Source: Vitreimonas sp.
Lineage (GTDB): Bacteria > Patescibacteriota > Microgenomatia > UBA1400 > PJMF01
Assembly (NCBI GenBank): GCA_035627515.1
Contig: DASPLQ010000012.1
Span: 842,331 to 906,330, forward strand
Length of the DNA: 64,000 nt
Direction: 5' to 3'
A program made the position numbers and the translations under genes. The notes beneath the pieces were generated by a model. It was not told where the DNA came from. It ran no database searches and saw only the letters and a program-made list of their open reading frames with translations. Within the stretch, counting starts at the first letter, position 1. Every line of letters begins with the position of its first letter. Shown here in pieces: positions 2,782 to 54,706 of this stretch.

Positions 2782-2796
2782 GGTATAATCCGCCCC

Positions 2797-21700: not shown

Positions 21701-22922
21701 AAAAGAAAGTACGGTGACTATTACTAGTCAACGCACACTTAATCAACCTAATGGCTATGTCACGTTAATTTTGCCGCGTATAAACGAAGAAGAACATACT
21801 GTGAATATCTCTCAATTAGCGCTCAATACTTTTTCACCTTTAGTGACTACAAATGTGACCTTGCCCAGCGCTATTAATACTGGCACTAGACCAAAGATAA
21901 CTTCAGCATTGTCCTTGCCCTATGTGCTCTCCACCAGTTCTTATTTTTTCAATCCTCAAGTGGAGGCATTGCAGTTGCGGTTTAGAAGTAGCTGTGAACA
22001 TGGATCAGGTGACCATCGCTTACAAAGAGTGAGAATGGCCAAAGAGGGGACAAATAATTCTGTATTGAGTTATGTTGACGATTGTTATCAAAGCATTTTT
22101 ACGGTGATTCCTTTTAATCCTCATAATCTCTATTTCTTAGGTACACAGTATCATGTTTACACTGGCAATCAACCACAATGGATAGCTAGCCAGGATTATG
22201 CACTCAAACATGAATTATTGTCACGTTATGACTATTACCCAAATATGCCTAACTTCAAAACCCTGCAGCACGCAGATCGGTTTTTGAGCACGGTATCTTC
22301 GGCACGGGAAGAAGTTAAAAAAGAGCTTAATAAATATGCTTCTCTAGCCGCTTATACTACCGTCCAGCCGGTAGGAAACACCTTAACCAAAGATCAGTTC
22401 ATTGAAATTCATCACCCAGTTGGGAATCAAGGCTTGATGCAGTTGTGGGATTTGACCATTATGGCATTACCTGCAAGCTGGGGTTCAGTTAAGCTAACGC
22501 CACCTAATCCCGAACAACGCTTTGATGAAGTGCAAGTAAAAACGATTACTCGAGTTTTGCCTTCGCTGTGGAAAGCTGAGATAGAATTGCCTCGCGAATG
22601 GAAATATGGCCGAGCTTTTCTAGAATTTGGCCAGGCATATGATCAGCAATGGCAGTTTTTTGTAGCTCGTTCACCATGGCAAGTCTTTTTTAATAAAGGC
22701 CATTTGCCGGTTGAGCCTGTGAAAGTTAATGGTTGGGCTAATGGTTTTATAATTGCCAAAGAGCAGTTGCCAACCACAAATTCGTCTTTAACCGTTTACT
22801 TCTTTTATATCCCAGAAAGATTAGCAATTGTGGGCTGGATGATCACCATTACTACTGTGATGGCAGTAATTCTTTACTGTGAATGGGCAAAGCTAAAAGC
22901 TTTGTTCAGATTTAAGCGGTAG
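18738..22922 (+). CDS. Giant (1394 aa) membrane protein: N-terminal ~450-aa multi-TM GT-C-like domain, ~900-aa extracytoplasmic domain, C-terminal TM helix (AftD/DUF3367-like architecture?)
   Basis: Translation shows ~12 TM segments at the N-terminus, a long hydrophilic Asn/Thr-rich region, and a terminal TM (LAIVGWMITITTVMAVILY). Family assignment is by architecture only. Confidence 0.5.
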   Translation: MFLGNKLLAWVTKNWALALLVCFLMAICVANLKPSFYLMGWDNFSVSLDLRLNLPRTFFATWREYRGFGVASDSEVVDVFRQMILLALDLLLPINLVEQIYYLMMFSLGGIGAFLLVKHVISSSYDTGRPHIIQTSSLIGALFYISSVNTLDVFYLPIVMYIVRFALFPWIVFVFLSLLSSPKLNKGLLLLFAIITLFGTPAYLTATIFITLIILLGTTLFSCPEKIVRYFLLISIFLLLNTFWLLPFINYTVNKSDRIAQSATFSLINEGLLNQFAERFAPGRILSFSAEIFAGMPFSFLDSGKFFEIHDGVHYTQINNPVPYYLFLPLLLALAGLTILIITSVVKKSPKLIWVVLLFSVATFFLFKEYQSLGFLFDSLSQYVPVVKIIFRFAGTKFYILLTMAFMLLIAITVFWLLNFIHDSTPSSFKKVLQWLFSAWLIVAISWSTFFYLQGKLTFDLLFVDLPAPYHEIAETINNDPTFARVVHLPSNQLNYWKVYEWGYYGSAFLNFMLDKPLIDKTFSPASLENDQFYSALEDLNKNFTNLTAQDQKARAQQVYSLFHTAGVKYVINDETVDISNLTAKNIKTWDYSQTFDMTPLVIKMKEEGLLQEIIKRNINITEFTQKYGLIPEQVGQNAHQDRAITLFALSNFETSSVRSVPSVTNYDANMENALLSLATDDEQTFTQNEKAEAGYLPFLTTHKNVTKQKDHWEFGNPSNTPLEFAFNTATVSAKNVSEAYDIFLQKNDKNLTIFAQRTQLPFEKKFRPEAAKELLVVPMTRLNWKQIQKGAFTNQYANDWHMLGLRPVSNYRLQIGDLVLPIPMDVYEQPSYLSTILSSSETNISILEHDQKDEAAAALKLDTLGFLPEPNCYPDKKSSFETSIDANENNLVWKTKDGTSCLSLPLGFEVNQADAEGFQSYLELTLTTTHQTTESEIENQQFSPLKIQRAIRGEVADLPNYTSLEYCFADSDDQRCLNYRQALRTLSKESTVTITSQRTLNQPNGYVTLILPRINEEEHTVNISQLALNTFSPLVTTNVTLPSAINTGTRPKITSALSLPYVLSTSSYFFNPQVEALQLRFRSSCEHGSGDHRLQRVRMAKEGTNNSVLSYVDDCYQSIFTVIPFNPHNLYFLGTQYHVYTGNQPQWIASQDYALKHELLSRYDYYPNMPNFKTLQHADRFLSTVSSAREEVKKELNKYASLAAYTTVQPVGNTLTKDQFIEIHHPVGNQGLMQLWDLTIMALPASWGSVKLTPPNPEQRFDEVQVKTITRVLPSLWKAEIELPREWKYGRAFLEFGQAYDQQWQFFVARSPWQVFFNKGHLPVEPVKVNGWANGFIIAKEQLPTTNSSLTVYFFYIPERLAIVGWMITITTVMAVILYCEWAKLKALFRFKR

Positions 22923-37221: not shown

Positions 37222-38814
37222 TTATTGAGCGACGCGTCGACAGTGCTCCACACTAATAATCCCAAACTGGTGTGGCTCGCCACAGCTCACCCCTTGGGTC
37301 ATTTCCGCATACCAAGGATCAAAGAAAATAGTTTTAGTGCCGTGAAAGGGTTCATAAAGCAAAAAGTATTCTTGATGTTTAGCCTCAACTTGAAAATCAA
37401 CTGGCCTCTCGCCTTGGGTGCGAGCCAGCCATTCATTGAGATATTGATAATTGATGGGCACCAAATTTGGCACTCGGGCGGCGATGGCAATCGGCTCGGT
37501 AGTGGTCATAGTGCGGATGTTACGAAGAGCTCGGAGTTGATGCCCAATGGTGTACTGCAAGGTGCTGGGATGATAAATAGCACTGACGTAGTGCCAGGTT
37601 CCCAAACTCCACAACATGATCATGATGACGCTAGCTGTTTTACGCCACGGATAGCGATGTAAAGCAAAAATGAGGGCCATAATAATTGGTAAATAATGGG
37701 CAGTAATGTAGTAATTAAAGAAATAACCATAATTTCCCCGGTGAAGTAGCATGCCCACTAAGGGAGAAATCACCAACAACAGTACGAACCATTCATGTTT
37801 GGTTTTGCGAAGCTGCACCGCTAAGTAGGTTAGGAGACTAATGACCAACCAGACCCCAAGTTTAGAAAGAGTCTGTAAAGCAAATAATGTGTTTTGGAGC
37901 TCAGCAAACATCAGGAGTGGTCGCTCACGCCAAATCTGCATTAAGGGGACTTGTTTAGATGTATCTGACATTTCTTTTAGCAAAGAGTTGGTCATCAAAA
38001 ATTGATTCCGGAACTCAAATAAGGCTTGGGGGGCTACCGTGACAGCAAAAGCTACACACCCGATGATGAGCGTTTGCCACGAGAAAATGGATGAAGCTTT
38101 GGTCTGTGTCCACCGATTTCGAATCAGCGTATATAGTGGAGAATGAATAAATACCCACCAGCCCACTACCGGAGCTAAAAAGATGGCGTAGGCAAACTCT
38201 GTTTGTAAACTCAGGCCATAGCAAAAAAGGCCCAGTGCCAGCCACAGTGGTTGCCAGCGGCTAGAGCGGATCGAGGTGAATAACGACCATGTCATCAGAA
38301 TTAACACTGGAGCTACCCACGAAGGGTTCCAGATGTTTCGGGCTTGGCTTAAGGCACCAGGGGTGAGAGCAAATAAAACGAGTGCTAACCATGCTAGATA
38401 AGGCTTAACAAATGGTTTGAGGGTGTAATATAAAACCGGCAAAGTCGCTACGATAATAAACATTTGCCATATGACCACCCCGATGGGGCTGCCATTACTG
38501 ATAATGAACCCAGGCAGCAAGGCATAATAGAAAAAGGGTCCTAAGAAAAAGCCAGGTAAGCCAGTAGTCGGCCCAATCAAGGTCACGTCGCCGCGGGTGA
38601 TTTGTTGCAAGACATACATGTCTCGACCTTGGTCATAACTAAAAATCATGAGTTCGGAGATGTTGTAAACTCGAAGCAAAAAGGCGGCCAGACAGAGAGC
38701 CAAGAGAAGTAAGTTTTCACGCGTGAAAAGTGAAGACAGTTTATTGAGCATAGGTGCTGGCGACTTCGGCCAGGGCTTCTTTAATACTATGAAGTTTGAA
38801 ATCGAGTTGGCCAA
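37222..38814 (-). CDS. ArnT/PMT-like GT-C membrane glycosyltransferase (about 510-530 aa)
   Basis: ~12 TM segments; first loop FSYDQGRDMYVLQQITRGDVTLIGPTTGLPGFFLGPFFYY, paralogous to 29844..31373. The start may be the internal Met at ~38751. Confidence 0.55.
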   Translation of the reverse strand: MANSISNFIVLKKPWPKSPAPMLNKLSSLFTRENLLLLALCLAAFLLRVYNISELMIFSYDQGRDMYVLQQITRGDVTLIGPTTGLPGFFLGPFFYYALLPGFIISNGSPIGVVIWQMFIIVATLPVLYYTLKPFVKPYLAWLALVLFALTPGALSQARNIWNPSWVAPVLILMTWSLFTSIRSSRWQPLWLALGLFCYGLSLQTEFAYAIFLAPVVGWWVFIHSPLYTLIRNRWTQTKASSIFSWQTLIIGCVAFAVTVAPQALFEFRNQFLMTNSLLKEMSDTSKQVPLMQIWRERPLLMFAELQNTLFALQTLSKLGVWLVISLLTYLAVQLRKTKHEWFVLLLVISPLVGMLLHRGNYGYFFNYYITAHYLPIIMALIFALHRYPWRKTASVIMIMLWSLGTWHYVSAIYHPSTLQYTIGHQLRALRNIRTMTTTEPIAIAARVPNLVPINYQYLNEWLARTQGERPVDFQVEAKHQEYFLLYEPFHGTKTIFFDPWYAEMTQGVSCGEPHQFGIISVEHCRRVAQ

Positions 38815-39636: not shown

Positions 39637-40020
39637 TTACACATTGGCCAGGTGAGAAGATTTAGAAATATTATTATTAAATTCACTGAGAATATCGACC
39701 AGCCTTACCGCAGTGGCTCGCACGCCACCGGTAGTCTCATAGACTGGTAAACATTCGCGCATAAAAGCAATCAGTAAGGAAGTTTCAAGAAAAAAATCAG
39801 GGTTGTCATCGGGGTTGGTAGGAGAAACCTCTCGTTTGAGAAGAAAAAAACTATCAACATGTGAATGCGTGGGAGGTGAACTGAAGATCACTTTATCACT
39901 GGCAGGTAAGCAGTCCCACACGGCAGTAAAAACTCTGAGCAACATAGTTTCTTCGATGTGATTTTGTTCACTGATACTCACTAAGATTGGCCAATCAATA
40001 AACTTGATTTCCCTAGCCAT
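39637..40020 (-). CDS. Hypothetical protein (~127 aa) inserted between rmlD and rmlC
   Basis: Intact ORF. I take the start at MAREIKFIDWPI to avoid overlap with rmlC. No recognisable domain. Confidence 0.4.
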   Translation of the reverse strand: MAREIKFIDWPILVSISEQNHIEETMLLRVFTAVWDCLPASDKVIFSSPPTHSHVDSFFLLKREVSPTNPDDNPDFFLETSLLIAFMRECLPVYETTGGVRATAVRLVDILSEFNNNISKSSHLANV

Positions 40021-40540
40021 TTTTTGGTCCCCACATTTCAGGTAAAACGCAGTCCCAGGTAAACTTGAATTCATCAGCAGCATCATATGGATGGGATTGG
40101 AAGTTAACGACAATACTTTCGGTGGTGCCTAAAGCTTTCCAACCATGCATGATCCCGGGGGGAATTTTGAGGTAGCGAGGTTTTTGAACACCGAGGATGA
40201 CGCTGTTAGCGTGGCCAAAAGTGGGTGACCCTTCGCGAATATCTACTAAGCACACTTGGAGCTTACCACGAGTGACAGTGAATTGATCAGTATGAGTGCC
40301 GTGTAAATGCCAGCATTTGACCACTCCGGGGTCGGTGGCACTTTGATAGGCATGAAGGGTAGGAATGACTTTGCCTTCTTGGTACTCAGGCCAAGCTGTG
40401 CTCCAGAGTTCAATCACATCGCCACGATCGTCAAGGAGCGTGGTTAAATCTTTCAAAAAAGTGCCTTCAATCGTCAGGCCTTTGTGAATTTGAAATTGTT
40501 GTTGTTGTAACCACTGTTCAGTGATGTTCTGGACTTCCAT
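40013..40540 (-). CDS. rmlC: dTDP-4-dehydrorhamnose 3,5-epimerase
   Basis: Cupin motifs: DDRGDVIELW, QSATDPGVVKCWHLHGTHTDQFTVTRGKLQVCLVDIREGSPTFG, and KIPPGIMHGW. Confidence 0.88.
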   Translation of the reverse strand: MEVQNITEQWLQQQQFQIHKGLTIEGTFLKDLTTLLDDRGDVIELWSTAWPEYQEGKVIPTLHAYQSATDPGVVKCWHLHGTHTDQFTVTRGKLQVCLVDIREGSPTFGHANSVILGVQKPRYLKIPPGIMHGWKALGTTESIVVNFQSHPYDAADEFKFTWDCVLPEMWGPKNG

Positions 40541-41638: not shown

Positions 41639-41808
41639 TTATTTTTGAGTTGTGGCTGTTGCTGAGCACCTTTTAATTTATAAAAATTATTACGCCATGA
41701 TTGAGCGGCACTGTGATAATAGCCGGCTGCTAAAGCCAGGACAACAATGATAATGACGAGTAAGCGCGTCACATTTTGGGCAGAGAGTGGTGGTTTAATT
41801 GTGGACAT
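41635..41808 (-). CDS. Possible small single-TM protein (57 aa), below the ORF-track size cutoff
   Basis: Hand translation: MSTIKPPLSAQNVTRLLVIIIVVLALAAGYYHSAAQSWRNNFYKLKGAQQQPQLKNN*. Overlaps the LCP stop and the octamer repeat. Speculative. Confidence 0.25.
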   Translation of the reverse strand: MSTIKPPLSAQNVTRLLVIIIVVLALAAGYYHSAAQSWRNNFYKLKGAQQQPQLKNN

Positions 41809-42955
41809 TAAGGCCTAATTTTTGAGCAACTTCTAACTTAAATTGTTCGCTGTCCCGAACCTGATATATCCATTGGTTTTGATACCGAGCGGTGAGTGGG
41901 GGATTGATTAGCACTCCCTGTGGGTCATCGGGATAAACACTCAAGCTATTGCCAGTATACGTGATCGCATCCTTGTGTGGCCATAAGCTTTTAGCGGTCG
42001 CTAGGCCTTCCTCAATACTGACAGCTCGACCAAATTGAGTCTGATAAAACTGATACAGCTGGCCTAGTTTTTTGGGTTGTTTAATCAAATTAGGATCGGT
42101 AGCCTTAGCCAAGATGGCTTTGATGACTTGCTGCTGGCGCCGGGCACGAGCATTATCGTCACCTTCATCACCCATACTATGGCGGCTGCGGATATATTTG
42201 AGAGCTGTTGCACCATTCATCGTTTGAGGCCCAGCTTTAAACTCCACAGTTTCATACAGCTTAGCAGGGTCACGCTCGGTAGTTACATCCACGTCACTGC
42301 GCGGGAAGAGTGGATCTATAAAAGCGGTTTCGACACTCACCTCGATTCCTCCCAACATATCAATAACTTGTGCCACTTGGTCCATAGATATCAAGACTGT
42401 GTGATGAATAGGTACTCCAGTTAATTGTTCAATAACTTCCTTTGAAAAGCGTTCCGGTTCAGTGGGATAACGGTCACGGCCATACGCATACAAAGCATTA
42501 ATTTTAGTTTGAAAATCTTCACTATAGATATCACGAGGCAAAGGTAAACTGCGGATCTGGCCGGTCTCTAAATTAACAGAGACCAGCATCATTGTGTCAG
42601 TTAGGGGTGGGACATCTCCCCGGGTTTGGAGGGTATCCACTCCCAGCAGTAAAACATTTTTATGATGGTTGGTGTGGATGGGAGTTTGATTCCAGCCTGT
42701 CGTCAGTGTTTGATAAAGTTGACGAGGAGTAGTGCCAGCAGCCGTGGTAAAAGTCGTCAAGCGATGGTAGGCAAAAAGAGCCACCGCCAGGAAAGTGATC
42801 GCCAGGAAAATCACTACAAATAGTAATGTCAAAAGCTGAGCGGCAATAAAAGGGTGGCGATTGATAAATCCAAGCCGTGGCTCCATATGAAGTGAGGGGG
42901 TCATACTCATCGAAGAAGTTTCGGCTGGAATCGGCGTTAGTTTTGCTTTGGCCAC
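41795..42955 (-). CDS. LytR-CpsA-Psr (LCP) family cell-wall glycopolymer ligase
   Basis: N-terminal TM anchor, then LLLGVDTLQTRGDVPPLTDTMMLVSVN and an RSRH motif, characteristic of the LCP domain. Confidence 0.85.
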   Translation of the reverse strand: MAKAKLTPIPAETSSMSMTPSLHMEPRLGFINRHPFIAAQLLTLLFVVIFLAITFLAVALFAYHRLTTFTTAAGTTPRQLYQTLTTGWNQTPIHTNHHKNVLLLGVDTLQTRGDVPPLTDTMMLVSVNLETGQIRSLPLPRDIYSEDFQTKINALYAYGRDRYPTEPERFSKEVIEQLTGVPIHHTVLISMDQVAQVIDMLGGIEVSVETAFIDPLFPRSDVDVTTERDPAKLYETVEFKAGPQTMNGATALKYIRSRHSMGDEGDDNARARRQQQVIKAILAKATDPNLIKQPKKLGQLYQFYQTQFGRAVSIEEGLATAKSLWPHKDAITYTGNSLSVYPDDPQGVLINPPLTARYQNQWIYQVRDSEQFKLEVAQKLGLNVHN

Positions 42956-43061
42956 GATGACTCATTGTACAAAATTTGTCAGCTTTGAAAAGCACAGCCT
43001 CACTAACTAGATCGTTCTGATATAATTCGGAGTAAGAAGTGTGTAGAGAAAGTCACGTCAT

Positions 43062-43943
43062 ATGATTAGAGATAGAGAGCGACTGTCCCCAAGAATTGCC
43101 AGTCCTGAAAAATTTTGGGAGTTTGGACCACTTGGTTTACTAAATTTCCTTACCAAGCCTCGCTATCAAATTGAAGTTGAGAGGAAAGAGATTATTAGAC
43201 GAGAAATGGTTAATAATCCCGGATTACACGACAGTTTCCATCCCGTTTTTGATGGTGAGGGAAAATTAGTCAAAAATGATTTAACTTCATATCCCGTCAA
43301 AGTTCTCCGAAATATTCCGGCAGGGAAGGAAATCGTTCGGGTTGACGCAGACACCATTCATGAGGAAATCCAAACAGCTTTGAATAATGCTCGCATCTCA
43401 AGAGAGCAGTTGCTCAGAGAAGGAAAATTGATTCTGTCAGATGAAATGGGTGAAGACGAAACTCAAAAAAGATGGTGTGAATTGCGTGAATTATTTATCA
43501 ATTTGGCTAAGCCCATTATCGGTTCACAGCGAGAAAATTGTTACTTTCTGAATCCAGATTTCACTCTACAAGTTCAGGTGGTAGACTTGGGCAATAACAC
43601 CGCTTCTATTCGTTTAATTGAATGGCCAAAAGGCTTTGAACCCAAGAAAAAAGAGCGAAATGTTAAAGAATTAAAACAAGATGAAAATATGCCCTGTATG
43701 AAACGCCTCTACGAAGTTGTAGTGGGAAAAGCAATAAATAGGAAAGATGGCACCAATAATTATGGAATTTCTCGAGCTGGGCAGGTGGATATAAGGGAAA
43801 CTATGGCAAGTAAAAATGGAGTGGTTTATTTCGAAAGCAGTGCTGTTGATGCTCATAACAGAGACATGCAAACCGGCAATTTTACTCTCGCTCAAAAACA
43901 AACCTTTATAGAAACTTTTGGAAAGTTACCTTTTTATGAATAA
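43062..43943 (+). CDS. Hypothetical cytoplasmic protein (293 aa); tandem paralog 1 of an unknown family
   Basis: Intact ORF; blocks of similarity shared with the next gene. Confidence 0.5.
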   Translation: MIRDRERLSPRIASPEKFWEFGPLGLLNFLTKPRYQIEVERKEIIRREMVNNPGLHDSFHPVFDGEGKLVKNDLTSYPVKVLRNIPAGKEIVRVDADTIHEEIQTALNNARISREQLLREGKLILSDEMGEDETQKRWCELRELFINLAKPIIGSQRENCYFLNPDFTLQVQVVDLGNNTASIRLIEWPKGFEPKKKERNVKELKQDENMPCMKRLYEVVVGKAINRKDGTNNYGISRAGQVDIRETMASKNGVVYFESSAVDAHNRDMQTGNFTLAQKQTFIETFGKLPFYE

Positions 43944-45141
43944 AGATCTCGCTCCACGCAAAAACCTCATTCCACAGGATCAATATTGGGGCTTAGGTTC
44001 AATTAGTTTTTTAGATTTTTTAACTAGATTGCGTTATCCAGTCAATCTCGAGGTAAATAAATTGGAAAAAACTAAGTCGGGAACTGGTGAGTTTGTGAGT
44101 AAAAGAAATGGAGTGCGCAGTATCTTAGCAGATGCGGATACTATCCATAACACGATTAAAGGAAAGCTGGCACATGATAAAGCGATGAAAGAAGCGCAGT
44201 TGAAATCAAAGTTGTTAGTTCTTGATGAGCAACCACCCGAAGGTGAAGCCGCAGAAGCAGAGATTGATAAACGTTGGCGGAGTGTAAAAGCTAAATTACT
44301 TGAAATGATCAAGCCGCTGATGCCTAATAACAAACAAAGCACTCATCAAATTGAAGTTGATGGTCAGATTCACCAGGTTCAGATTATCCCTAATAAAGAG
44401 TTACATAATGTCACCATTCGCTTTTATGCATGGCCAAAAGGATATAAGCCTAAAGAGTTAATTAGTGTTTCACGATGGAGTGAGATTGATAAAAGTGCTA
44501 TTAGCAATGCTTACGAAGTGGTGATTGTTAGAGATCCTGTTCAAAAGGACAATTGGAATAATGAGCTCGTGGTGCAATCTGCTGCCCAGGTGGATATCGC
44601 TACATCTCAGGCTAACTCTGTGTATTTTCTCAGCACACAGTTTGCCAACCTGAGTAAGTATGAGCATGAATTATCAACGGCTGAAAAGTTTGCTTTTCTA
44701 CAGAATTTTGAACACCGCGTGGAAAATGTCCATTCTTTAGTAACATATGAACATCAATTTTCCCGAGTGGTTGAGTTAATCAGAGCATATAGCAATCCTA
44801 AAGAAAAATCTCAATTAGTTATTGAAAACGATACCTCAAAAGTAACTATACAGATTAAACCTCATCTGGAAACTCAGGGCACACTATGCAAGTGGTCGGT
44901 TGATATCAATTCAACGAGTAAAAAAGATCAGATTGAGAAAATGATCACTATTGATTTAAAGCCTGCAAAAAAAGGTAAGCTGATGATTGCTCAGCCTATT
45001 ATTTTAAGAAATGGATTAGCTCAAAATCGCCAAATGTCTTCACTCGTTCCTAATTACCAAGGTGAACTCAATCGATCAGATCAACTAAAATTTGCTCAGT
45101 TTATGGCTGAGGTTTTTCCTGTTGTCTCTCACTCTAGCTAA
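43936..45141 (+). CDS. Hypothetical cytoplasmic protein (~401 aa); tandem paralog 2 with an extra C-terminal ~120 aa
   Basis: Shared blocks with 43062..43943: FWEFGPLGLLNFLTKPRY / YWGLGSISFLDFLTRLRY; DADTIH in both; KRW; IEWPKGFEPK / YAWPKGYKPK; AGQVDI / AAQVDI. Confidence 0.5.
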   Translation: MNKDLAPRKNLIPQDQYWGLGSISFLDFLTRLRYPVNLEVNKLEKTKSGTGEFVSKRNGVRSILADADTIHNTIKGKLAHDKAMKEAQLKSKLLVLDEQPPEGEAAEAEIDKRWRSVKAKLLEMIKPLMPNNKQSTHQIEVDGQIHQVQIIPNKELHNVTIRFYAWPKGYKPKELISVSRWSEIDKSAISNAYEVVIVRDPVQKDNWNNELVVQSAAQVDIATSQANSVYFLSTQFANLSKYEHELSTAEKFAFLQNFEHRVENVHSLVTYEHQFSRVVELIRAYSNPKEKSQLVIENDTSKVTIQIKPHLETQGTLCKWSVDINSTSKKDQIEKMITIDLKPAKKGKLMIAQPIILRNGLAQNRQMSSLVPNYQGELNRSDQLKFAQFMAEVFPVVSHSS

Positions 45142-45168
45142 TTTTCTAGCCTCGATTACAATTGAGGT

Positions 45169-46947
45169 ATGTTGAAGCAAGTTGCTGTTTATTTAGTGCT
45201 GGCTGTGATTTTTTTGGCGTCTTCGTGGTCATTACTTCATAGTAGCTTTTTCCGCATCCATGACTATGTGCACGCAGCGCGGATTGTAGAGATGTCCAAG
45301 GCGGTGCAAGAAGGTCACATCCCACCCCGGTGGAGTGCTAACTTTGGTTATGGATACGGCATGCCACTGTTTGAATTCTATGCACCTTTGCCTTATTTTG
45401 CGGGGGCGTTGTTGTATATAGCTGGTGTACCCATGATCACGACATTGAAGATTTTGTTCGCCGGGTGTTCATTACTGACGATGATTGGGGCTTACTATTT
45501 AGGGCGAAAATTGTATGGCAGGAGTAGTGGGTTGGTAGTAGCGGCAGCTCTGACCTTGGCGCCGTATCGCTCAGTGAACTTATTTGTGCGTGGTGCCTTA
45601 TCAGAAGCATGGGGTATCATGGCCTTACCGTGGATTTTACTCGGTATCATTAAAGTTATTCGCAACGAAGACAAAGGATGGTTGATTTTAGTCAGTGGCT
45701 TAGTAGTGTTGATGTTGAGTCATAACATCACCACCTTGTTATTTGTCCCTCTCAGTGTGATCTTTGCTGTCGGTTATTGGTTGATTTGGAACTGGTCGCA
45801 ATTGAGTGCTAAAGAGAGTTGGCGCAATATTTTTTCGCGCCCAAAATTGCAGCAGCTCCCGTTATTAGCCGGATCATATTTAATGGCCATCGGTGTGAGC
45901 GCTTTTTATTTGTTTCCAGCTTTGGCAGAGAAAAATTTCACCCAAGTGGAGCAGATTTTTGGTGGTTACTTTCATTACTCTCACCACTTTTTGTATATTC
46001 GCCAATTCCTGAAACCCTTTTGGGGTTATGGCGGCTCTGAGTGGGGACCCAATGATGGCATTTCGTTTTTCTTTGGTTGGGGACAGCTAGTGGGGTTATT
46101 AATTGCGGGGATGGTGATGGGGAGAGAGAGTTTATTATGGCTAAAATCTAAATTCCAAAACACACATTCCAAAAAATCTACCATTCAATCTTTGGGATTT
46201 GGAGCTTGGGTATTTGTGATTGCTCTTTCCCTCATGGCCTTTGCCTGTTTCATGAGTTTATTGCGCTCCAAATTTATTTGGGATGCAATTCCTTTTTTGG
46301 CATTTGTGCAGTTTCCATGGCGGTGGTTAGCAGTTGCTATCACCTTTTTAAGTGTAGCCATGGTCAGTGGTTTGGCGAGTTTGCGTTTTGAGAAAGTTCG
46401 CTGGGGGCTGTCTGCGTTGGTGATTGTTATTATCATTGCAGCTAATTGGTCATACTTCAAACCAGAGTCATATTTAGATGACCCGACAGAATTTTATTAC
46501 ACTGATCCAGCTTTGATCCGGGCTCAAATGAGCTCAATTCTTCCTGATTATATCCCCCAAGCTATGGGTAAACTTGAAAAGCCTCCAGAGGTACCTTTCT
46601 TATTACCTTTAGGTTTAGATAAAGAAGTAAGTACGCTCATCGATCGTGGTCATGAAAAGTTGTATAAAACTACTTTTGCCCACGAAACAAAATTGAGCTT
46701 ATCGCTGGCGGACTTTCCAGGCTGGCAATTTGAGATCGATGGTCAGTCAGCTCCCAAAGTGCCTGGAGATGTAGCCGGCACCTTAGCCGTGATGGTGCCC
46801 GCTGGCGAACACTTGGTAGGAGTACAGTTTGGTGGTACACCTGTCAGAAACATCTCTGATATAGTGAGTGCCTTGAGTTTAGTGCTCGTTTTGTATTGTT
46901 TACTGCCCGTCGCTGCTCAATCAAAAGACCGCCATGCCAAAGCTTAA
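45169..46947 (+). CDS. Polytopic membrane protein (592 aa), GT-C-like glycosyltransferase candidate
   Basis: ~13 TM segments; first loop HDYVHAARIVEMSKAVQEGHIPPRWSANFGYGYGMPLFEFYAPLPY. SD GAGG upstream. Confidence 0.45.
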   Translation: MLKQVAVYLVLAVIFLASSWSLLHSSFFRIHDYVHAARIVEMSKAVQEGHIPPRWSANFGYGYGMPLFEFYAPLPYFAGALLYIAGVPMITTLKILFAGCSLLTMIGAYYLGRKLYGRSSGLVVAAALTLAPYRSVNLFVRGALSEAWGIMALPWILLGIIKVIRNEDKGWLILVSGLVVLMLSHNITTLLFVPLSVIFAVGYWLIWNWSQLSAKESWRNIFSRPKLQQLPLLAGSYLMAIGVSAFYLFPALAEKNFTQVEQIFGGYFHYSHHFLYIRQFLKPFWGYGGSEWGPNDGISFFFGWGQLVGLLIAGMVMGRESLLWLKSKFQNTHSKKSTIQSLGFGAWVFVIALSLMAFACFMSLLRSKFIWDAIPFLAFVQFPWRWLAVAITFLSVAMVSGLASLRFEKVRWGLSALVIVIIIAANWSYFKPESYLDDPTEFYYTDPALIRAQMSSILPDYIPQAMGKLEKPPEVPFLLPLGLDKEVSTLIDRGHEKLYKTTFAHETKLSLSLADFPGWQFEIDGQSAPKVPGDVAGTLAVMVPAGEHLVGVQFGGTPVRNISDIVSALSLVLVLYCLLPVAAQSKDRHAKA

Positions 46948-48433
46948 CCAAACCGCTATCGATACTACTTTAGACGCCGAAGAAGCCTTAACTACCCAAG
47001 AGTTGCATACTATCAAAAAGCGATCTATTGCCGGAGTGATTTCTTTTTTCTTTCGCGGCATCGTCATTACGCTGATTGGCATAGTGGCCTCAGGTGTACT
47101 GAGCGCATATTTATCCCCAGCTGACTTTGGAGTTTTTGGATTGGTGACTCAGATTATTGCCCTGCTGACCTTTTTTTCTGATATTGGTTTAGCTGCTTCC
47201 TTAATTCAAAAAAAAGATGAACCAACCGAAGCCGAGTACCGGACAGCTTTCACTGTCCAGCAATTATTAGCCTGGGTGATTTTTGCGATCGCGCTAATGT
47301 TAGTAGCCAGTGGGGTGGTGCAGCCTAAGATTGGCACCGCTGGTGCGTGGGTGCTGCTCAGCTTAGCTTTTTCGTTTCCCTTAGCGACATTCAAAACTAT
47401 TTCGCACCTCAAGCTTGAGCGGCGACTAGAATTTGGCAAAGCGGTTTTGCCTCAGGTTTTTGAGCAACTCATTTTTAATGTCTTACTGATTGTCTTGGCT
47501 TGGAGAGGGATGGGGGTCATGGCCTACACCTACGCGATCTTAGCCCGGTCGGTAGTGGGTATAGTCGCTATTCAATACTTGATGCCTTGGCAACCAGCTT
47601 TGGCATGGGAACAATCAGTCTTAAAAAATCTCTTGAGTTTTGGGGCTAAATTTCAAATTAATGATTTCTTAGCACGTGTCAAAGATTCTTTATTTTATTT
47701 AGTGTTGGGCATTTATTTACCGCTCGATCAGTTTGGGTATATTCAATGGGGGAAAAATTGGTCGCAGTATCCGTACACCTTGACTGTCCAGCACATTACA
47801 GCGGTGACCTTTCCCACCTTTGCCCGGTTGCAAGGAAGCAAGCCGGCTTTGGCACGGGCTATTGAAAAAACCTTATTTTTTATTTCACTGGTCATTTTCC
47901 CGATCTTAGTGGGGATGTGTGTCTTTATTTTTCCCTTAGTAGTTTTAGTGCCTGATTATCATAAGTGGCAGCCGGCTTTATTAAGCTTTGTGTTGTTCTG
48001 TTTATCAATTGGTTGGGGTGCCATTTCCACGCCGTTAACTACGACTTTGAATGCCATTGGAGAAATTAATAAAACTCTTAAATTGATGATTATGTGGACG
48101 AGCTTGACCTGGATTTTAACTCCAGTGGGCATTTACCTGTATGGATACAATGGCGTGGCCATAGCTGCCTTTGTGATCGCTTTCACTTCGGTGGCGCCTA
48201 TGTATTATGTGGCTCAGATTCTGCCGGTCAAAATTTGGGAACAGGTTTGGCGGCAGTTGACCGCAGCCAGTGTGATGGGCTTGGTGGGGTGGATTGGTTT
48301 AGAGTGGTGGCAACAAAGCTTACAGATGATGGTAGTTGGTATGGCTACAGTTGGTAGTTCATATATACTCACCATCGCCGTGGTGGGTAAAGATAAACTG
48401 TGGGCGGAAATCAAAAGTTTACGTAAAGTCTAG
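46934..48433 (+). CDS. Wzx-like polysaccharide/oligosaccharide flippase (MOP superfamily)
   Basis: 499 aa, ~14 TM segments. N-terminal region KKRSIAGVISFFFRGIVITLIGIVASGVLSAYLSPADFGVFGLV is typical of the Polysacc_synt family. Confidence 0.7.
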   Translation: MPKLNQTAIDTTLDAEEALTTQELHTIKKRSIAGVISFFFRGIVITLIGIVASGVLSAYLSPADFGVFGLVTQIIALLTFFSDIGLAASLIQKKDEPTEAEYRTAFTVQQLLAWVIFAIALMLVASGVVQPKIGTAGAWVLLSLAFSFPLATFKTISHLKLERRLEFGKAVLPQVFEQLIFNVLLIVLAWRGMGVMAYTYAILARSVVGIVAIQYLMPWQPALAWEQSVLKNLLSFGAKFQINDFLARVKDSLFYLVLGIYLPLDQFGYIQWGKNWSQYPYTLTVQHITAVTFPTFARLQGSKPALARAIEKTLFFISLVIFPILVGMCVFIFPLVVLVPDYHKWQPALLSFVLFCLSIGWGAISTPLTTTLNAIGEINKTLKLMIMWTSLTWILTPVGIYLYGYNGVAIAAFVIAFTSVAPMYYVAQILPVKIWEQVWRQLTAASVMGLVGWIGLEWWQQSLQMMVVGMATVGSSYILTIAVVGKDKLWAEIKSLRKV

Positions 48434-48434
48434 G

Positions 48435-50225
48435 TTAATCTTTAGTCAGTAATGCCCGACAGAACTCAGGTGTATCTAACTTTTCTACTTGTAGATGTTT
48501 CAGATCAGTAATTTGGCTAAAACCTTGCATGGTTTCTGTACTACACAGCTGATCATTATAAACTTTATAAATGGCGCCACTGTCAAACAGCGAAGGGATA
48601 TTTGTGACGCTGATGGCAGTAGGTACGTCAGCTTTAGTGCCACTATTACAAAATGTATTACTGGCTTCAGAAATAATGGTGGTAGTATCATTTAGTTGGG
48701 TGAGATCAATACAATCAGTCACAAATCGTACGTTGCCCAATTGGTATGAGTGATCACTCATTGTTTGCTGAATAGCTGGCATATTGTCTGCCGTAATTAA
48801 ACGATTAAAAAATAAATAACTATTGAAACGAAACTCAGACTCATCGCCGAGGACAATGAACCGGTGCTGAGGATGATCCTTTTGTACCCGCGCCACGTAG
48901 TTATTGACCACGCGCTCTGCCAAAGCACTGCCCTTGGTACTAATGATTGGGTAACGGACCCAGTATTGGTACTGAAACCACACCACGCAGCCACTATAAA
49001 TCAATACAATGCCTGCAAAGAGCCACAGTTTTTTATGATTGCGTAGTAACTCCAAGCCTAATGCTGCTAACATAATCAGTAAGGGAAAAAGGAATGATGA
49101 GCGGAACATGATCCATGAATCTAGTGAATTCACAGCCGAAGGCAAGGGTGCAATTAAAATTAAGGCTGTAATGAAGTAAGCTTGTGGACGCCACTTGGTG
49201 ACATGCCATACATAAAATAAACCGGCGCCAATTAACAAAATATCTATAGGATAAAAAATGCCAGCCGTCCACACTGAGAAAGGGTTGCGGACATTTTCAC
49301 CTGTTAAAAACAGATGATAAGGCTCAAAAGCCCGTGCATACTTTAATAATAATTGATAACCAATAACGGTCGCTTTATTAGAGAATAAGGTATTGAGTGG
49401 TGAAACTAGTGATAACCGGCGTTCTTCATTCACTAAACTGCTGACGTAATCTTCATTAAAAAAGATCATGTCACCAACACGCTGGCTGGCTGATTGTGAA
49501 GCTAAATTGGCGATATACCATAAGAAAATAGCTGCACAACACAGCACGATCAATAAGTCCGGTAAATAATTACTCAACTGAGTTTTTAATTTATTCCAAC
49601 TGAGTTTTTTAATACTGATGGCAGTAATCGCTTCTCGACAGTCATAAACTAAAGTGATGGCAATAAGCGCAGGGAAAATAATTTTCAAACCTTGATATTG
49701 AAAAAAGCCGAGTATTAATAAAGGTAGAGCCCACAGTTTGTGCCACTTGGGAGCTGCTAGCCACACATAAATGCCACTGAAATAGAAAAATAAACTAAAA
49801 ATGGCATCGAAGCTGAGGCGGGAAAATTGAAACAGCCAGGGATTAAGTACCGCTAACACTGCCGTAGTTAAAGCCACGGATTTATTTTTGAAGAGGTGGT
49901 AAGAAAGCCCAGCTAAAATAAAGGGTAACAATGAACCGATGATTGCCTGAGCAGCACGAGCTGCAACAAGCGGGTCAGAAATGATCACCGCGGCCGGGGC
50001 CATCACTGTCGCTGGGAGCTCGGCATACAAAATATGGGCTGGCCGAAAGTGCCACGGACGCCAAGTGCCAGTGAGATCGCTGCCGCTGACGGCGATGCTT
50101 TGGGCTTGGGCTGCATAAATGATTTCGTCGTGAACCACGGTAGCAGGGATACTACCTAACTGCCAGAAACGCATCACTACGGCGACGACCCACAAACCTA
50201 GCCACAAAAGCGTCTCTTTTTTCAT
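48435..50225 (-). CDS. PMT/ArnT-family (GT39/83-like) phospholipid-carrier-dependent glycosyltransferase
   Basis: First periplasmic loop VVHDEIIYAAQAQSIAVSG, a DE motif. Multi-TM; 596 aa. Confidence 0.65.
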   Translation of the reverse strand: MKKETLLWLGLWVVAVVMRFWQLGSIPATVVHDEIIYAAQAQSIAVSGSDLTGTWRPWHFRPAHILYAELPATVMAPAAVIISDPLVAARAAQAIIGSLLPFILAGLSYHLFKNKSVALTTAVLAVLNPWLFQFSRLSFDAIFSLFFYFSGIYVWLAAPKWHKLWALPLLILGFFQYQGLKIIFPALIAITLVYDCREAITAISIKKLSWNKLKTQLSNYLPDLLIVLCCAAIFLWYIANLASQSASQRVGDMIFFNEDYVSSLVNEERRLSLVSPLNTLFSNKATVIGYQLLLKYARAFEPYHLFLTGENVRNPFSVWTAGIFYPIDILLIGAGLFYVWHVTKWRPQAYFITALILIAPLPSAVNSLDSWIMFRSSFLFPLLIMLAALGLELLRNHKKLWLFAGIVLIYSGCVVWFQYQYWVRYPIISTKGSALAERVVNNYVARVQKDHPQHRFIVLGDESEFRFNSYLFFNRLITADNMPAIQQTMSDHSYQLGNVRFVTDCIDLTQLNDTTTIISEASNTFCNSGTKADVPTAISVTNIPSLFDSGAIYKVYNDQLCSTETMQGFSQITDLKHLQVEKLDTPEFCRALLTKD

Positions 50226-50227
50226 GA

Positions 50228-51982
50228 TTGCCTATGTTGTATCATGCATCAGCACAAAACTCTATGTTAGCTTTTTTGTCTTCGCTGCGACGTGAATGGA
50301 AATCAAGTCTAGTTCTACTAGCTATTGTTATTTTCGCCTTTGGTATCCGATTATTACAGTTAGATCAAGCTCCTAAAGGAGCCTTGATTGATGAAGCCCA
50401 CTTTGGCTATTTAGCCTACTCACTCTTAGAAACTGGTAAAGACGAGCATGGGGTGTCCTGGCCGATTATTTTCAAAGGTTTTGGTGACCAAAAGTTACCT
50501 GGGTATGGGTACGCATTGTTACCGTTTGTGAAGGTATTGGGTTTATCGACATTTACCATCAGAATTCCTTCCTTATTAGCCGGGACATTTTTAGTCTTAG
50601 CAGTGTACTTACTAATTAAAGAATTACGCTTAGATACCCGATGGGCTTTATTTGGTGCCTTTGTGACTGCTGTCGCTCCCTGGTCATTTTTTCTGAGTCG
50701 CATGGGCTTTGAATCTAACCTCGCCCTCGTTTTTTGGGTTTTTGGGCTGTGGGCGGTGGTGCGGGCTGTAAACCTAAAAACTAAAACCGGCTGGTGGATA
50801 ACGGCCGCAATTTTAATCGCTTTGACTTGGTATTGTTATATAGCGTATCGCCCGGTGACGGTGGCAGTAGTGGGAGCATTTTTACTTACCGCTTGGTGGC
50901 TGAAGCAAATTACTTGGCAAAAAATTGCTGTGTTTGGGGTCAGCTTTGTGATTGCGGTTTTCCCTTTATTCTTACCCTCAGCAATCGGGAGCAATGCCAC
51001 ACGTTTCAACCAGGTTGGATTATTTGCTGATCGCGGTTTGACCGCCGAAATCAATGAAAATCGCACCTTTTGTGATTTTAAGTTGCCGCGTTTATTTTGT
51101 TATGCGATTTGGAATAAGGGAACTATTTTTTCACGGTTATTAATTGAGCGTTATATTTATACGTTTGCCCCTCAATATTTAGGTACCAAAGGTGAAGATG
51201 GTTTAATCTTTTTAACTGTCAAAGATTATGGCCAGTTTTATTTCGTACTCTATCCTTTTTTTATTTTAGGATTGTTGGCCTTAATTAATCCACCTAAAAA
51301 ATTTAATTTAGACTTACAAAATAAAGTATTATTAGGAGCCGGTTTAGCCTTTGCGCCCATTCCTACTATCTTAGTTGGCGAAGCCCAAAAAGTGAGAATT
51401 TCTTCGTTGTTTCCTTTTATTCTGATTATTATTGTCTTGGGAGTGTCTGTGTTTGTGACCTACCTCAAAAAAGAGTGGTTGCAAAAATTATTTTTGACGG
51501 GTTTGGTGAGCTTCATTATGATTAGTGCCGTGGCACACTTCGTGGCTTTTTTCACTGTTCATACCGTCAAGAATGATTACTACTATCAAACTTATTTACC
51601 CGACGCCTTTCAGTATCTTTCTGAATATGGCCGAGATACCGATATTATTATCAAACCGTTCTTTTCCGATCCATTGATGTTTTATGCTTATTACGCTAAG
51701 TTAGATCCCGCCTTTTATCAACAGAACGCAGTTTTGGGTGAACAAGAGCCTGGTGGTTTCCAACACACCATCAAGCTAGCTAATTACAGTGTGGAAGATA
51801 CGTCGCTCAAAACCGTTGCCTGCAAAGTGGCTAAAACTGGTAAACCCACTGTCTTTGTCAGTAATATTGAAGAAGATGGCGATTATAAATACACCGTGTA
51901 CTCTCTGAACGGCTCATTACGTTATATTTTTATTTATGATATTCAACGTTATTTAGCCAAACGCCCTGGCTTGTGTGAGTAA
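50228..51982 (+). CDS. PMT/ArnT-family glycosyltransferase (584 aa)
   Basis: LIDEAHFGYLAYSLLETGKDEHGVSWPIIFKGFGDQK is the canonical DE loop of PMT_2-type enzymes. The ORF track starts on TTG at 50228; the true start may be the ATG at 50234 or 50264. Confidence 0.7.
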   Translation: MPMLYHASAQNSMLAFLSSLRREWKSSLVLLAIVIFAFGIRLLQLDQAPKGALIDEAHFGYLAYSLLETGKDEHGVSWPIIFKGFGDQKLPGYGYALLPFVKVLGLSTFTIRIPSLLAGTFLVLAVYLLIKELRLDTRWALFGAFVTAVAPWSFFLSRMGFESNLALVFWVFGLWAVVRAVNLKTKTGWWITAAILIALTWYCYIAYRPVTVAVVGAFLLTAWWLKQITWQKIAVFGVSFVIAVFPLFLPSAIGSNATRFNQVGLFADRGLTAEINENRTFCDFKLPRLFCYAIWNKGTIFSRLLIERYIYTFAPQYLGTKGEDGLIFLTVKDYGQFYFVLYPFFILGLLALINPPKKFNLDLQNKVLLGAGLAFAPIPTILVGEAQKVRISSLFPFILIIIVLGVSVFVTYLKKEWLQKLFLTGLVSFIMISAVAHFVAFFTVHTVKNDYYYQTYLPDAFQYLSEYGRDTDIIIKPFFSDPLMFYAYYAKLDPAFYQQNAVLGEQEPGGFQHTIKLANYSVEDTSLKTVACKVAKTGKPTVFVSNIEEDGDYKYTVYSLNGSLRYIFIYDIQRYLAKRPGLCE

Positions 51983-52897: not shown

Positions 52898-53752
52898 TTA
52901 ATGAGGTAGCATTCGAGCTCGTAAGCCTTGCCACATTTTTTTCATTGAAGACAAGAGGTTTGTATAGGGTGATTCTTCAAATTTGATTTGCAAGGTGAGT
53001 AATTTTTTAAGAAATTTTTCTAGTTCATTAAATGAGATGTAGTCGTTTCCTTTGCGAGAAAAACCCATTACATCCCATTGCTCATAAAAATTCCTTAGTT
53101 CTTTTTTTACATCTGTTGAGATGTCATTTTGGTAAGGGTCGGTAGTGGCAAGGGTATGAAGTGTTTCTACCACCACACAAATGTTATGAGCAAATTCACT
53201 ATTATTGCTGAGCAATTCTTGAGTATTTATTGTGCCTTTTCGCTCTTTTAAGTTAATAGACTTATCAATATAGGGAGTTTTATTTACTAAATCTTTGACC
53301 GCGCCTAGGTCGACTTGCATAACCTGATATGACCAGCTTGAAGGCTTAGATTCATGAGGTACAAGTTTTATAAGTATGTTAAGAATATTTCGATCGATTA
53401 ATAAAATACCATAATTTTCTACTAATTCCCTCATCTGTTGCAGTGTTTTTATGGCTACTTCTATGTGGTCTTGGCCAGAAAAATGCAAAACCCGACCATC
53501 TTTATATATTTCCTTTTTTCTTAAGAGATCTGCCCATTGAAAGCCATGTACCTTTTCCACAGGGTAAACATCATACCCAGCTTCGAATTGTTCACCCCAG
53601 GCCTTGTCAATCTTAGTATCGGGCACAACTACTTGAGGAATGACACCAGGCACTACCTCACCAAGATGAAGCTGATTAACAAAGCGAGGATTTGAGTAAC
53701 TAGCCTCACCTTTCTCAAAGTGGATATCATTGACAGTTAATTTTTTTTCCAT
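52898..53752 (-). CDS. Hypothetical AT-rich protein with a protein-kinase-like catalytic-loop signature (speculative)
   Basis: ILLIDRNILNILIKL has D-x4-N spacing like the HRDLKPENIL catalytic loop, followed ~25 aa later by QVDLGAVKD, which resembles a DFG motif. Start taken at MEKKLTVND. Local GC ~33%. Confidence 0.4.
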   Translation of the reverse strand: MEKKLTVNDIHFEKGEASYSNPRFVNQLHLGEVVPGVIPQVVVPDTKIDKAWGEQFEAGYDVYPVEKVHGFQWADLLRKKEIYKDGRVLHFSGQDHIEVAIKTLQQMRELVENYGILLIDRNILNILIKLVPHESKPSSWSYQVMQVDLGAVKDLVNKTPYIDKSINLKERKGTINTQELLSNNSEFAHNICVVVETLHTLATTDPYQNDISTDVKKELRNFYEQWDVMGFSRKGNDYISFNELEKFLKKLLTLQIKFEESPYTNLLSSMKKMWQGLRARMLPH

Positions 53753-53791
53753 TATTAACCATATTCTAGCCCTTTCAGGTATAATACGTCT

Positions 53792-54706
53792 ATGGATCAT
53801 ATTTCCATTGTCATTGTTCATTACAACACCGATAAAGATACGCGTGAGTGTTTGCAGTCATTAGCGAAAATTGAGACACGTGGTTTCAATTATTCAGTAG
53901 TTGTGGTTGATAACGCATCAAAAAAACCTTTGCATCTCCCGCAACAAGTTTTGAACAAAAATATTGAAGTCTTGCGCAGTGAGTCTAATTTGGGTTTCAC
54001 AGGCGGCAATAATTTGGGTATTAAGTATGCCGTCGAAAAATATAACTCTGAGTTTGTGTTGTTATTAAACAGCGATACATTAGTAGCTCCAGAGTTTCTA
54101 TCTGAGTTGTATACCTGCGCTAAAAACAGTTCCAAGCGTGGCATCACAGTGCCCAAAATTTACTTTGCTAAAAACTATGAATTTCACCAAGATAGTTACA
54201 CTGCCACACAAAAGGGAAATGTACTATGGTTTGCGGGCGGTACGATTGATTGGACCACTCTCTCAGCATTTCACCGTGGCGTAGACGAGGTTGATCGCGG
54301 GCAGTTTAATCACTCCACAGACACTGACTTTGCCACGGGTTGTTGTATGCTCATTGCCCGTGAGGTACTGGAAACGATTGGTGGTTTTGATAATCGTTAT
54401 TTTCTGTATTTAGAAGACGTTGACCTGAGTATGCGAGCACGCCTCAACGGTTTTTCAGTCACTTTTTGTCCCAGTTCTCAAGTCTGGCATAAAAATGGGG
54501 GTTCCAGTGGTGGGTCGGGTTCTATTTTGCAACAGTACTATTTAGTTCGTAACAGGGTTTGGTTTGCATTTCGCTATGCTTCATGGCGAATTAAGTTAAC
54601 CACCATCAGATATGCTGCCCAGCTACTTTGGAGTGGCAATACTATCGAACGACGCGCTATGATAGATGTACTCTTTGGTCGCTTAGGTAAGCAACCAATT
54701 TTATAA
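53792..54706 (+). CDS. Family 2 glycosyltransferase
   Basis: ISIVIVHYNTDKDTRECLQSL...VVVVDNASK...LLLNSDTLV...YLEDVDLSMR are GT-A DxD-type motifs. Confidence 0.85.
   Translation: MDHISIVIVHYNTDKDTRECLQSLAKIETRGFNYSVVVVDNASKKPLHLPQQVLNKNIEVLRSESNLGFTGGNNLGIKYAVEKYNSEFVLLLNSDTLVAPEFLSELYTCAKNSSKRGITVPKIYFAKNYEFHQDSYTATQKGNVLWFAGGTIDWTTLSAFHRGVDEVDRGQFNHSTDTDFATGCCMLIAREVLETIGGFDNRYFLYLEDVDLSMRARLNGFSVTFCPSSQVWHKNGGSSGGSGSILQQYYLVRNRVWFAFRYASWRIKLTTIRYAAQLLWSGNTIERRAMIDVLFGRLGKQPIL

Follow-up and report, generated by a model that had tools for sequence, protein, structure and literature searches.

A tandem pair of predicted soluble paralogs without detectable relatives in a conserved envelope glycopolymer locus of a Patescibacteria genome

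Two adjacent genes, here called ORF1 and ORF2, lie in a 64,000-nucleotide stretch (the window) of contig DASPLQ010000012.1 (positions 842,331 to 906,330 of the forward strand; GenBank assembly GCA_035627515.1), between a divergent gene for an LCP (LytR-CpsA-Psr) ligase and the genes for a GT-C-like membrane protein and a Wzx-type flippase. A first-pass annotation had described them as tandem cytoplasmic paralogs of 293 and about 401 amino acids (aa) without a recognised domain, and had suggested a novel cytoplasmic step in glycopolymer assembly or a duplicated accessory factor. Both open reading frames were confirmed at their coordinates (Table 1). The reading that we favour, with trust and doubt in about equal measure, is that ORF1 and ORF2 are a real, co-transcribed, anciently duplicated pair of soluble alpha+beta proteins, carried as lineage-private accessory cargo in a conserved rhamnose-type envelope glycopolymer locus. 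No known family or fold could be assigned to the pair with the tools available, and it is new in that sense only, no new mechanism having been demonstrated.

The paralogy of the two proteins was clear from their alignment. BLASTP aligned ~290 residues with 77/291 identities (26%, 84 bits, E=1e-22), and the Smith-Waterman score of 220 exceeded that of 500 shuffles (37.1 +/- 5.5, maximum 64) by z=33. The blocks W..G....L.FLT..RY, DADTIH, KRW...KP, IR...WPKG[FY].PK, YEVV, [AG]QVDI, and A.K..F...F are shared in this order. All blocks listed in the first-pass annotation fall within the alignment, and most of them were spelled correctly; the exceptions are IR, which is present in both proteins where I[ER] had been given, and the last block, which reads NFTLA in ORF1 and ELSTA in ORF2. 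ORF2 carries an additional C-terminal region, put at ~120 aa before and found to comprise about 115–139 aa, which is unlike the shared module. Its interpretation as a repeat of that module was rejected, as no sequence similarity was found (E=3.6 and 0.64).

At the 77 identical residues, 35 codons were identical, compared to 37.1 expected with synonymous sites fully randomised, and the nucleotide identity at codon positions 1, 2, and 3 was 0.47, 0.58, and 0.35, respectively. The duplication is ancient because the synonymous sites are saturated, and on this pattern the similarity of ORF1 and ORF2 is kept by selection at the protein level. The lack of homologs and of known domains, together with a start of ORF1 that differs between NCBI and other pipelines, could suggest spurious or decaying reading frames, that is, non-coding DNA or pseudogene remnants. 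However, both frames are long and intact in DNA of 38% GC, and the only competing ORF in other frames over the pair is an antisense one of 102 aa. Moreover, the paralog similarity, the codon-position pattern (2>1>3), the saturation of synonymous sites, and the concordant predicted secondary structure of the two proteins speak against this explanation, which is effectively refuted. By these coding signatures, ORF1 and ORF2 are real genes, neither DNA repeats nor chance ORFs.

In the NCBI record, ORF1 (HYD35332.1, VD999_04655) is called as a protein of 245 aa starting at M49. This call leaves out codons 1–48 (43062-43205) and with them the block W19-Y35, which is conserved in ORF2. The full 293-aa frame is called by the JGI, ENA, Logan, and GEM pipelines (P0004). 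The longer start is supported by these calls and by the conserved N-terminal block. Neither protein contains a transmembrane (TM) segment (maximum 19-residue Kyte-Doolittle mean 0.54 for ORF1 and 0.62 for ORF2) or a signal-like hydrophobic N-terminus, in agreement with the cytoplasmic character assigned to them at first. The N-terminal block was also considered as a membrane-anchoring amphipathic helix and rejected (hydrophobic moment 0.49–0.58, negative mean hydrophobicity).

Membership in a curated family (Pfam-A, NCBIfam) was taken as a score at or above the curated cut-off of that family. ORF1 had no Pfam match even at E<=1, while the Pfam matches of ORF2 stayed below the cut-offs (Cadherin-like, 13.5 bits with a cut-off of 24.2; FCSD_central, 11.9 bits with a cut-off of 27). 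NCBIfam and PADLOC gave no match for either protein, and the best PHROGs match (E=0.05) was to a family of unknown function, so the earlier statement that no known domain is present was borne out. A profile search of PDB sequences returned only a coiled coil (E=2.6). In a word-indexed search of 5.8 billion protein clusters, ORF1 and ORF2 each matched only themselves. When HMMER was run exhaustively over 1.84 billion representatives with a profile of the two paralogs, it recovered the pair and one repeat protein of 1394 aa (P0003), distinct from the window's own ORF of 1394 aa. This protein was rejected as a homolog, as seven repeats of a single motif account for its E=8e-6. No relative was found when GTDB species genomes, IMG/VR, and JGI metagenomes were scanned with back-translated patterns, or by tblastn against INPHARED phages and PLSDB plasmids, and no third copy was present in any frame of the window. 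Overall, no relative of the pair is detectable among about 15 billion public proteins, and the family is so far private to one genome of a poorly sampled lineage.

The gene neighbourhood was compared across 58 loci around orthologs of the 592-aa GT-C-like protein (the anchor), taken from GTDB species representatives. LCP was detected in 48 and Wzx in 55 of these loci, and relatives of ORF1 or ORF2 in none (0/58), as determined by tblastn, tblastx, and hmmsearch --max (filters off) of all six-frame segments. Likewise, no remnants of the 2.2-kb insert came to light when it was compared by tblastx and blastn with all loci and with the remainder of the window. LCP stands next to a complete anchor match in 47 loci; the contig fragment with the remaining LCP match was too short for use. 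In 46 of these 47, the two genes are directly adjacent and divergent, with an extrapolated gap of -62 to +225 bp. The gap in the window measures 2213 bp and is occupied by ORF1 and ORF2. Locus L060, with an anchor 53% identical, has the exact gene order of the window and a 48-bp LCP-anchor gap without the pair. This ancestral junction, likewise free of the pair, is also seen around P0007 and P0010. From the adjacency of LCP and anchor, and the abutment of anchor and Wzx in relatives, it follows that LCP with the divergent GT-C-Wzx genes is the conserved unit and that the pair is inserted. Judged by gene order, ORF1 and ORF2 are thus an insertion relative to the ancestral arrangement, in one genome.

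The best homolog of the anchor among 5.8 billion proteins, its own copy aside, is 64% identical, on a contig of 2 kb, and no other exceeds 54% identity; the source lineage is almost unsampled. On the contig of this closest relative (L059; ENA ERZ1760229, forest soil, 2027 bp), a co-directional gene ends (2-121, +) 26 bp before the anchor. The geometry equals that of ORF2; on so short a contig the gene could not be identified. Its last 39 residues are not significantly similar to ORF1 or ORF2, and the fragment was rejected as an ORF2 ortholog: the AQV.I and YQG matches picked out by eye gave P=0.63 and 0.75 against shuffles, and no match to the profile was obtained with filters off. The P0008 contig (JGI sample 3300050046; anchor 54% identical) carries a 390-aa MFS_1 gene, co-directional between LCP and anchor. 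As this gene lies at the same position, the junction can take different cargo. Further extra genes (GT2, small ORFs) were found elsewhere in the locus on the P0007 and P0010 contigs.

In this genome, the pair is linked to the GT-C-like and Wzx genes as in an operon. The co-orientation that had been pointed out gains weight from the 8-nt overlap of ORF1 and ORF2, the 27-nt spacer to the GT-C-like gene, and the lack of a credible terminator between ORF2 and that gene, which tie the pair to both downstream genes. A hairpin at 45095-45111 was rejected as a terminator, being no better than shuffles (minimum free energy -7.2 kcal/mol, z=-0.53). A promoter scan of the + strand found no promoter-like site within ORF1 or ORF2, only the extended -10 upstream of ORF1. 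The promoter motifs in the 106-bp spacer are consensus matches only. Given this layout, read-through transcription of ORF1-ORF2-GT-C-Wzx from a promoter in the spacer is probable.

Operon membership with GT-C and Wzx also lends some support to the initial proposal of a novel cytoplasmic step within the LCP/GT-C/Wzx pathway, performed, for example, by an enzyme that modifies a primer or lipid carrier, or by a dedicated pair of chaperones. The invariant polar residues in DADTIH, KRW, WPKG, YEVV, and QVDI, which are possibly catalytic, point in the same direction. However, the pathway runs without the pair in all sampled relatives, including L060 and the P0007 and P0010 contigs. The pair does not co-occur with LCP and GT-C-like genes, and no enzyme family or fold was recognised. 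Hence, the operon link to GT-C and Wzx holds, whereas the conserved pathway step, set against 46/47 junctions without the pair, does not. Such a step is very improbable, and as a conserved pathway component it is largely refuted. The other suggestion made at first, a duplicated accessory factor, stays viable.

The pair has a GC content of 0.38 and a GC content at third codon positions (GC3) of 0.32, below the 0.40–0.46 and 0.39–0.48 of the flanking genes. Along with an ancient duplication that is nevertheless unique to one genome, the absence of the pair from the ancestral junction, and the unrelated cargo at this junction in other lineages, these values would suit foreign cargo unrelated to the envelope. 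In this reading, a phage, plasmid, or other mobile element that has not been sampled would have supplied the pair in an already diverged state, and the pair, encoding for example a defence, anti-defence, or other conflict module, would have landed by chance in a permissive intergenic region between divergent genes. On the other hand, PHROGs, PADLOC, IMG/VR, INPHARED, and PLSDB gave no match, and neither an integrase or transposase beside the pair nor a target-site duplication or terminal inverted repeats were found, repeats being only of chance size. In addition, the insert is seamlessly wired into the operon, and its GC3 is at the low end of the window but no outlier (z ~-1.6, ranks 4–5 of 53), a value common to housekeeping-type genes. 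Low GC3 as proof of horizontal transfer was rejected, as a methyltransferase, an ABC-2 permease, and a GT1 gene are in the same range. An unrelated hitch-hiking module is rather unlikely taken by itself, yet nearly as likely as a link to the glycopolymer. Since the lineage is almost unsampled, two scenarios for the origin of the pair are conceivable: it may have diverged before it was acquired, from a donor not yet sampled, or it may have resided for long in an unsampled clade and diverged fast there.

Structure prediction and a Foldseek search, which had been suggested in the first-pass annotation, were carried out and gave no significant fold match. The AF2 models rest on two sequences only, with no alignment depth, and their pLDDT was 45 for ORF2 (~56–76 in core residues 104–280) and 36 for ORF1. 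Two independent AF2 runs agreed in secondary structure at 196/242 aligned positions with zero helix/strand conflict. The predicted shared topology starts with a short N-terminal helix in the W..G..L.FLT..RY block and a variable linker, followed by two long helices, one from DADTIH and the other from KRW onwards, then by an antiparallel meander of five to six strands containing WPKG, YEVV, and QVDI, and finally by a C-terminal helix. The ORF2 model adds five strands and one helix.

The apparent novelty of the pair could reflect the missing alignment depth, with the two proteins being highly diverged members of a known alpha+beta fold (NTF2/VirB8/TcpC-like, cystatin-like, or PUR/Whirly-like). 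The predicted topology, in which a 6-strand meander lies between two long helices and a further long one, is in line with this explanation, as are the weak top Foldseek matches of the ORF2 model, namely 3ub1 TcpC (E=3.6e-3), PUR-alpha, latexin, and Whirly, which are tandem helix-plus-antiparallel-sheet folds. However, none of these matches reached E=1e-3 (TM at most 0.26), and the ORF1 model gave a noise list of unrelated folds. The viral fold library BFVD (best E=1.2e-3, TM at most 0.22) and the PDB profile search offered nothing further. The NTF2/VirB8/PUR-like lead came from the ORF2 model and was set aside, as it was not reproduced with that of ORF1. With the TcpC/VirB8-type tandem NTF2-like proteins, the low-confidence ORF2 model shares two successive helix-plus-curved-antiparallel-sheet modules, at TM 0.12–0.16 and 11% identity. 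The membrane anchor and the role in conjugation that characterise TcpC and VirB8 have no counterpart here, as ORF1 and ORF2 lack a TM segment and no conjugation genes are nearby. A diverged known fold is considered an unlikely explanation.

Further functional classes were also considered. A GT-A glycosyltransferase, suggested by the DxD within DADTIH, carries this motif at the end of a beta-strand in a Rossmann-like alpha/beta/alpha fold and matches a GT-A profile. No glycosyltransferase profile of Pfam or NCBIfam matched, and in both AF2 models a disordered linker precedes DADTIH, at which a long helix begins, in a helix-helix-beta-meander-helix arrangement and not an alternating beta/alpha one; as the models are of low confidence, this is weak evidence on the fold. 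A type II toxin-antitoxin system consists of two small, non-homologous overlapping genes, one with a recognisable toxin fold; ORF1 and ORF2 are paralogs of 293 and 401 aa and matched no toxin or antitoxin profile. No sign of a phage-encoded or anti-phage defence function was obtained from PHROGs, PADLOC, IMG/VR, tblastn against INPHARED, or the BFVD fold search.

In the favoured reading, an ancient tandem duplication would have given rise to ORF1 and ORF2 as two soluble alpha+beta proteins, and the pair would have been inserted at the junction of the divergent LCP gene and the GT-C-like/Wzx operon, where it would now be promoter-proximal. The paralogs most likely cooperate, because the long tandem retention of both and a weak reciprocal pattern of charges (hairpin -2 vs. 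+6; beta core +4 vs. -1) fit a heteromer. Tentatively, they may act jointly, probably as a heteromer formed via the conserved two-helix hairpin and the beta-sheet core, with the C-terminal domain of ORF2 adding a partner-specific function. By analogy with accessory genes that vary among O-antigen and capsule loci, the pair could be a dispensable, lineage-specific modifier or regulator of the glycopolymer of this locus, and not a core catalytic step, a role which we likewise put forward with reserve. A bolder version is improbable, in which the pair would be a fast-evolving two-subunit cytoplasmic module of new fold, placed before the LCP/GT-C/Wzx operon and re-programming or gating glycopolymer export. 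If true, such a gating module could vary the cell surface for host attachment or phage evasion and would be a previously unseen class of envelope-assembly accessory factor.

Several points weigh against the favoured reading. The only functional link to glycopolymer synthesis consists of position and presumed co-transcription, and the promoter was called by similarity to a consensus, in a phylum with uncharacterised promoters. A permissive intergenic site could host unrelated cargo. The charge pattern behind the predicted heteromer is weak, and the GC3 of the pair, low but no outlier, is in a range common to ordinary genes. Finally, the orphan status could in part be a sampling artefact, since the nearest anchor homolog is as distant as described above.

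Table 1. Features of the gene pair and its immediate neighbours in the window.
Feature	Position	Strand	Remarks
LCP (LytR-CpsA-Psr) ligase gene	41795-42955	-	PF03816, E=3.9e-31; ancestral divergent neighbour of the GT-C-like gene
LCP-ORF1 divergent intergenic spacer	42956-43061		106 bp; sequence read
Promoter-like pair TTTTCA-16-TACAAT facing LCP	42991-42964	-	Consensus match only
Extended -10-like TGATATAAT	43018-43026	+	35 nt before the ORF1 ATG; consensus match only
ORF1	43062-43943	+	293 aa, ATG start, pI 7.7, soluble; shared module only
ORF1 block W19-Y35	43116-43166	+	Conserved with ORF2
ORF1 DADTIH	43344-43361	+	Residues 95-100; conserved block
ORF1 IRLIEWPKGFEPK	43608-43645	+	Conserved block
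ORF2, alternative TTG start	43918-45141	+	407 aa
ORF2	43936-45141	+	401 aa from ATG; start used in all public gene calls; HYD35333.1, VD999_04660
ORF1/ORF2 overlap ATGAATAA	43936-43943	+	8 nt, from ORF2 start codon to ORF1 stop; operon-type junction
ORF2 shared module	43936-44721	+	~aa 1-262 of 401; paralogous to ORF1; in-register DNA repeats
ORF2 block W18-Y34	43987-44037	+	Conserved with ORF1
ORF2 DADTIH	44131-44148	+	Conserved block
ORF2 IRFYAWPKGYKPK	44416-44453	+	Conserved block
ORF2-specific C-terminal extension	44722-45141	+	~139 aa (about 115-139); five beta-strands and a helix predicted, low confidence
ORF2-to-GT-C-like spacer	45142-45168	+	27 nt; GAGG directly before ATG
GT-C-like membrane protein (anchor)	45169-46947	+	592 aa; GT-C_AftD E=0.005, below Pfam threshold
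Wzx-type flippase	46934-48433	+	PF13440; overlaps the GT-C-like gene

The surrounding genes agree with the glycan context described at first, with the PF03816 gene upstream and divergent, and the 592-aa protein and the PF13440 flippase co-oriented downstream. The - strand carries, in this order, a GT-C-like gene, RmlD, a 158-aa ORF, an RmlC-like gene, RmlB, and LCP, followed on the + strand by ORF1, ORF2, the 592-aa GT-C-like gene, and Wzx. Downstream of Wzx are a 596-aa membrane protein (-) and then a PMT_2 GT-C gene and a GT2 gene (+). The homologs of the 592-aa protein are tagged PTPS_related, YfhO, PMT_2, and GT-C_AftD, so the label "GT-C-like" is fair. Here the GT-C-like gene and Wzx share 14 nt, and in 50/54 related loci the two genes abut or overlap. 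In locus L019 (1443-4778), a single ORF of 1111 aa spans both genes, as a possible natural fusion or a sequencing or assembly frameshift. If natural, this fusion would possibly argue for a physical GT-C-flippase unit.

The 158-aa ORF between RmlD and the RmlC-like gene (39637-40113, -) overlaps the start of the RmlC-like ORF and thus looked spurious. It may be a real conserved small gene; L060 has a 158-aa call at the same position (2585-3061), as judged by position. The window contains four or five large polytopic membrane proteins (37222-38814, -; 45169-46947, +; 48435-50225, -; 50228-51982, +; 18738-22922, +), among which only 50228-51982 (PMT_2) reaches the Pfam threshold, and the 596-aa and 1394-aa proteins have no Pfam match at all. 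Genomes of the Candidate Phyla Radiation (CPR) seem to encode many GT-C-like proteins that are poorly covered by profiles. Two further genes without a Pfam match have a low GC3, namely 52898-53821 (-; 307 aa, 0.316) and 2797-3936 (+; 379 aa, 0.317). The 307-aa gene, directly after the GT2 gene of the locus, may be further lineage-specific cargo. No tRNA genes and no Rfam families at the gathering threshold were found in the window.

Every informatively named record among the relatives of the anchor gene belongs to Patescibacteria (Pacebacteria/Paceibacterota or Woesebacteria). The public label "Vitreimonas sp.", an alphaproteobacterium, does not fit this evidence, by which the genome represents a Pacebacteria-like lineage of Patescibacteria. 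Approximately half of the anchor relatives are metagenome-assembled genomes (MAGs) named "uncultured Pseudomonadales" or, in one case, "Gammaproteobacteria". Many such GTDB-representative MAGs have this CPR locus as well and look similarly mislabelled. Two practical corrections arise from this analysis: where NCBI places the start of ORF1, and the taxon under which the source MAG is filed.

Surface-polysaccharide loci, such as those for O-antigen, capsule, and teichoic acid, contain variable accessory genes, which can normally be recognised as glycosyltransferases, acyl- or pyruvyl-transferases, or polymerases. The locus described here, compared by synteny only, resembles them in combining a conserved core (rml genes, LCP, GT-C, Wzx, GT2) with lower-GC lineage-specific inserts. 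Unlike the usual accessory genes, ORF1 and ORF2 match no transferase or polymerase type. The main present value of the pair is a clean negative, as the inference from neighbourhood, by which genes between LCP and GT-C are members of the pathway, fails the co-occurrence test.

An unannotatable pair will not surprise a specialist, as unknown families are routine in Patescibacteria, with ~63 per genome (Rodriguez del Rio et al., bioRxiv 10.1101/2022.01.26.477801). With the unknown families of uncultivated taxa catalogued in that study, ORF1 and ORF2 have in common the lack of a reference homolog, the occurrence in a CPR genome, and purifying selection. The catalogued families, however, each occur in more than one genome, and TM segments or signal peptides are present in 56% (10.1101/2022.01.26.477801), whereas ORF1 and ORF2 are confined to one genome, soluble, and related only to each other. 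Absent from about 15 billion public proteins and with its own ancient tandem paralog as the only relative, the pair is slightly unusual, and otherwise one case among many lineage-private unknowns in CPR genomes. If it acts on the GT-C/Wzx machinery, it would be an example of ultra-small episymbiotic bacteria customising their cell surface with private genes, possibly of a new fold.

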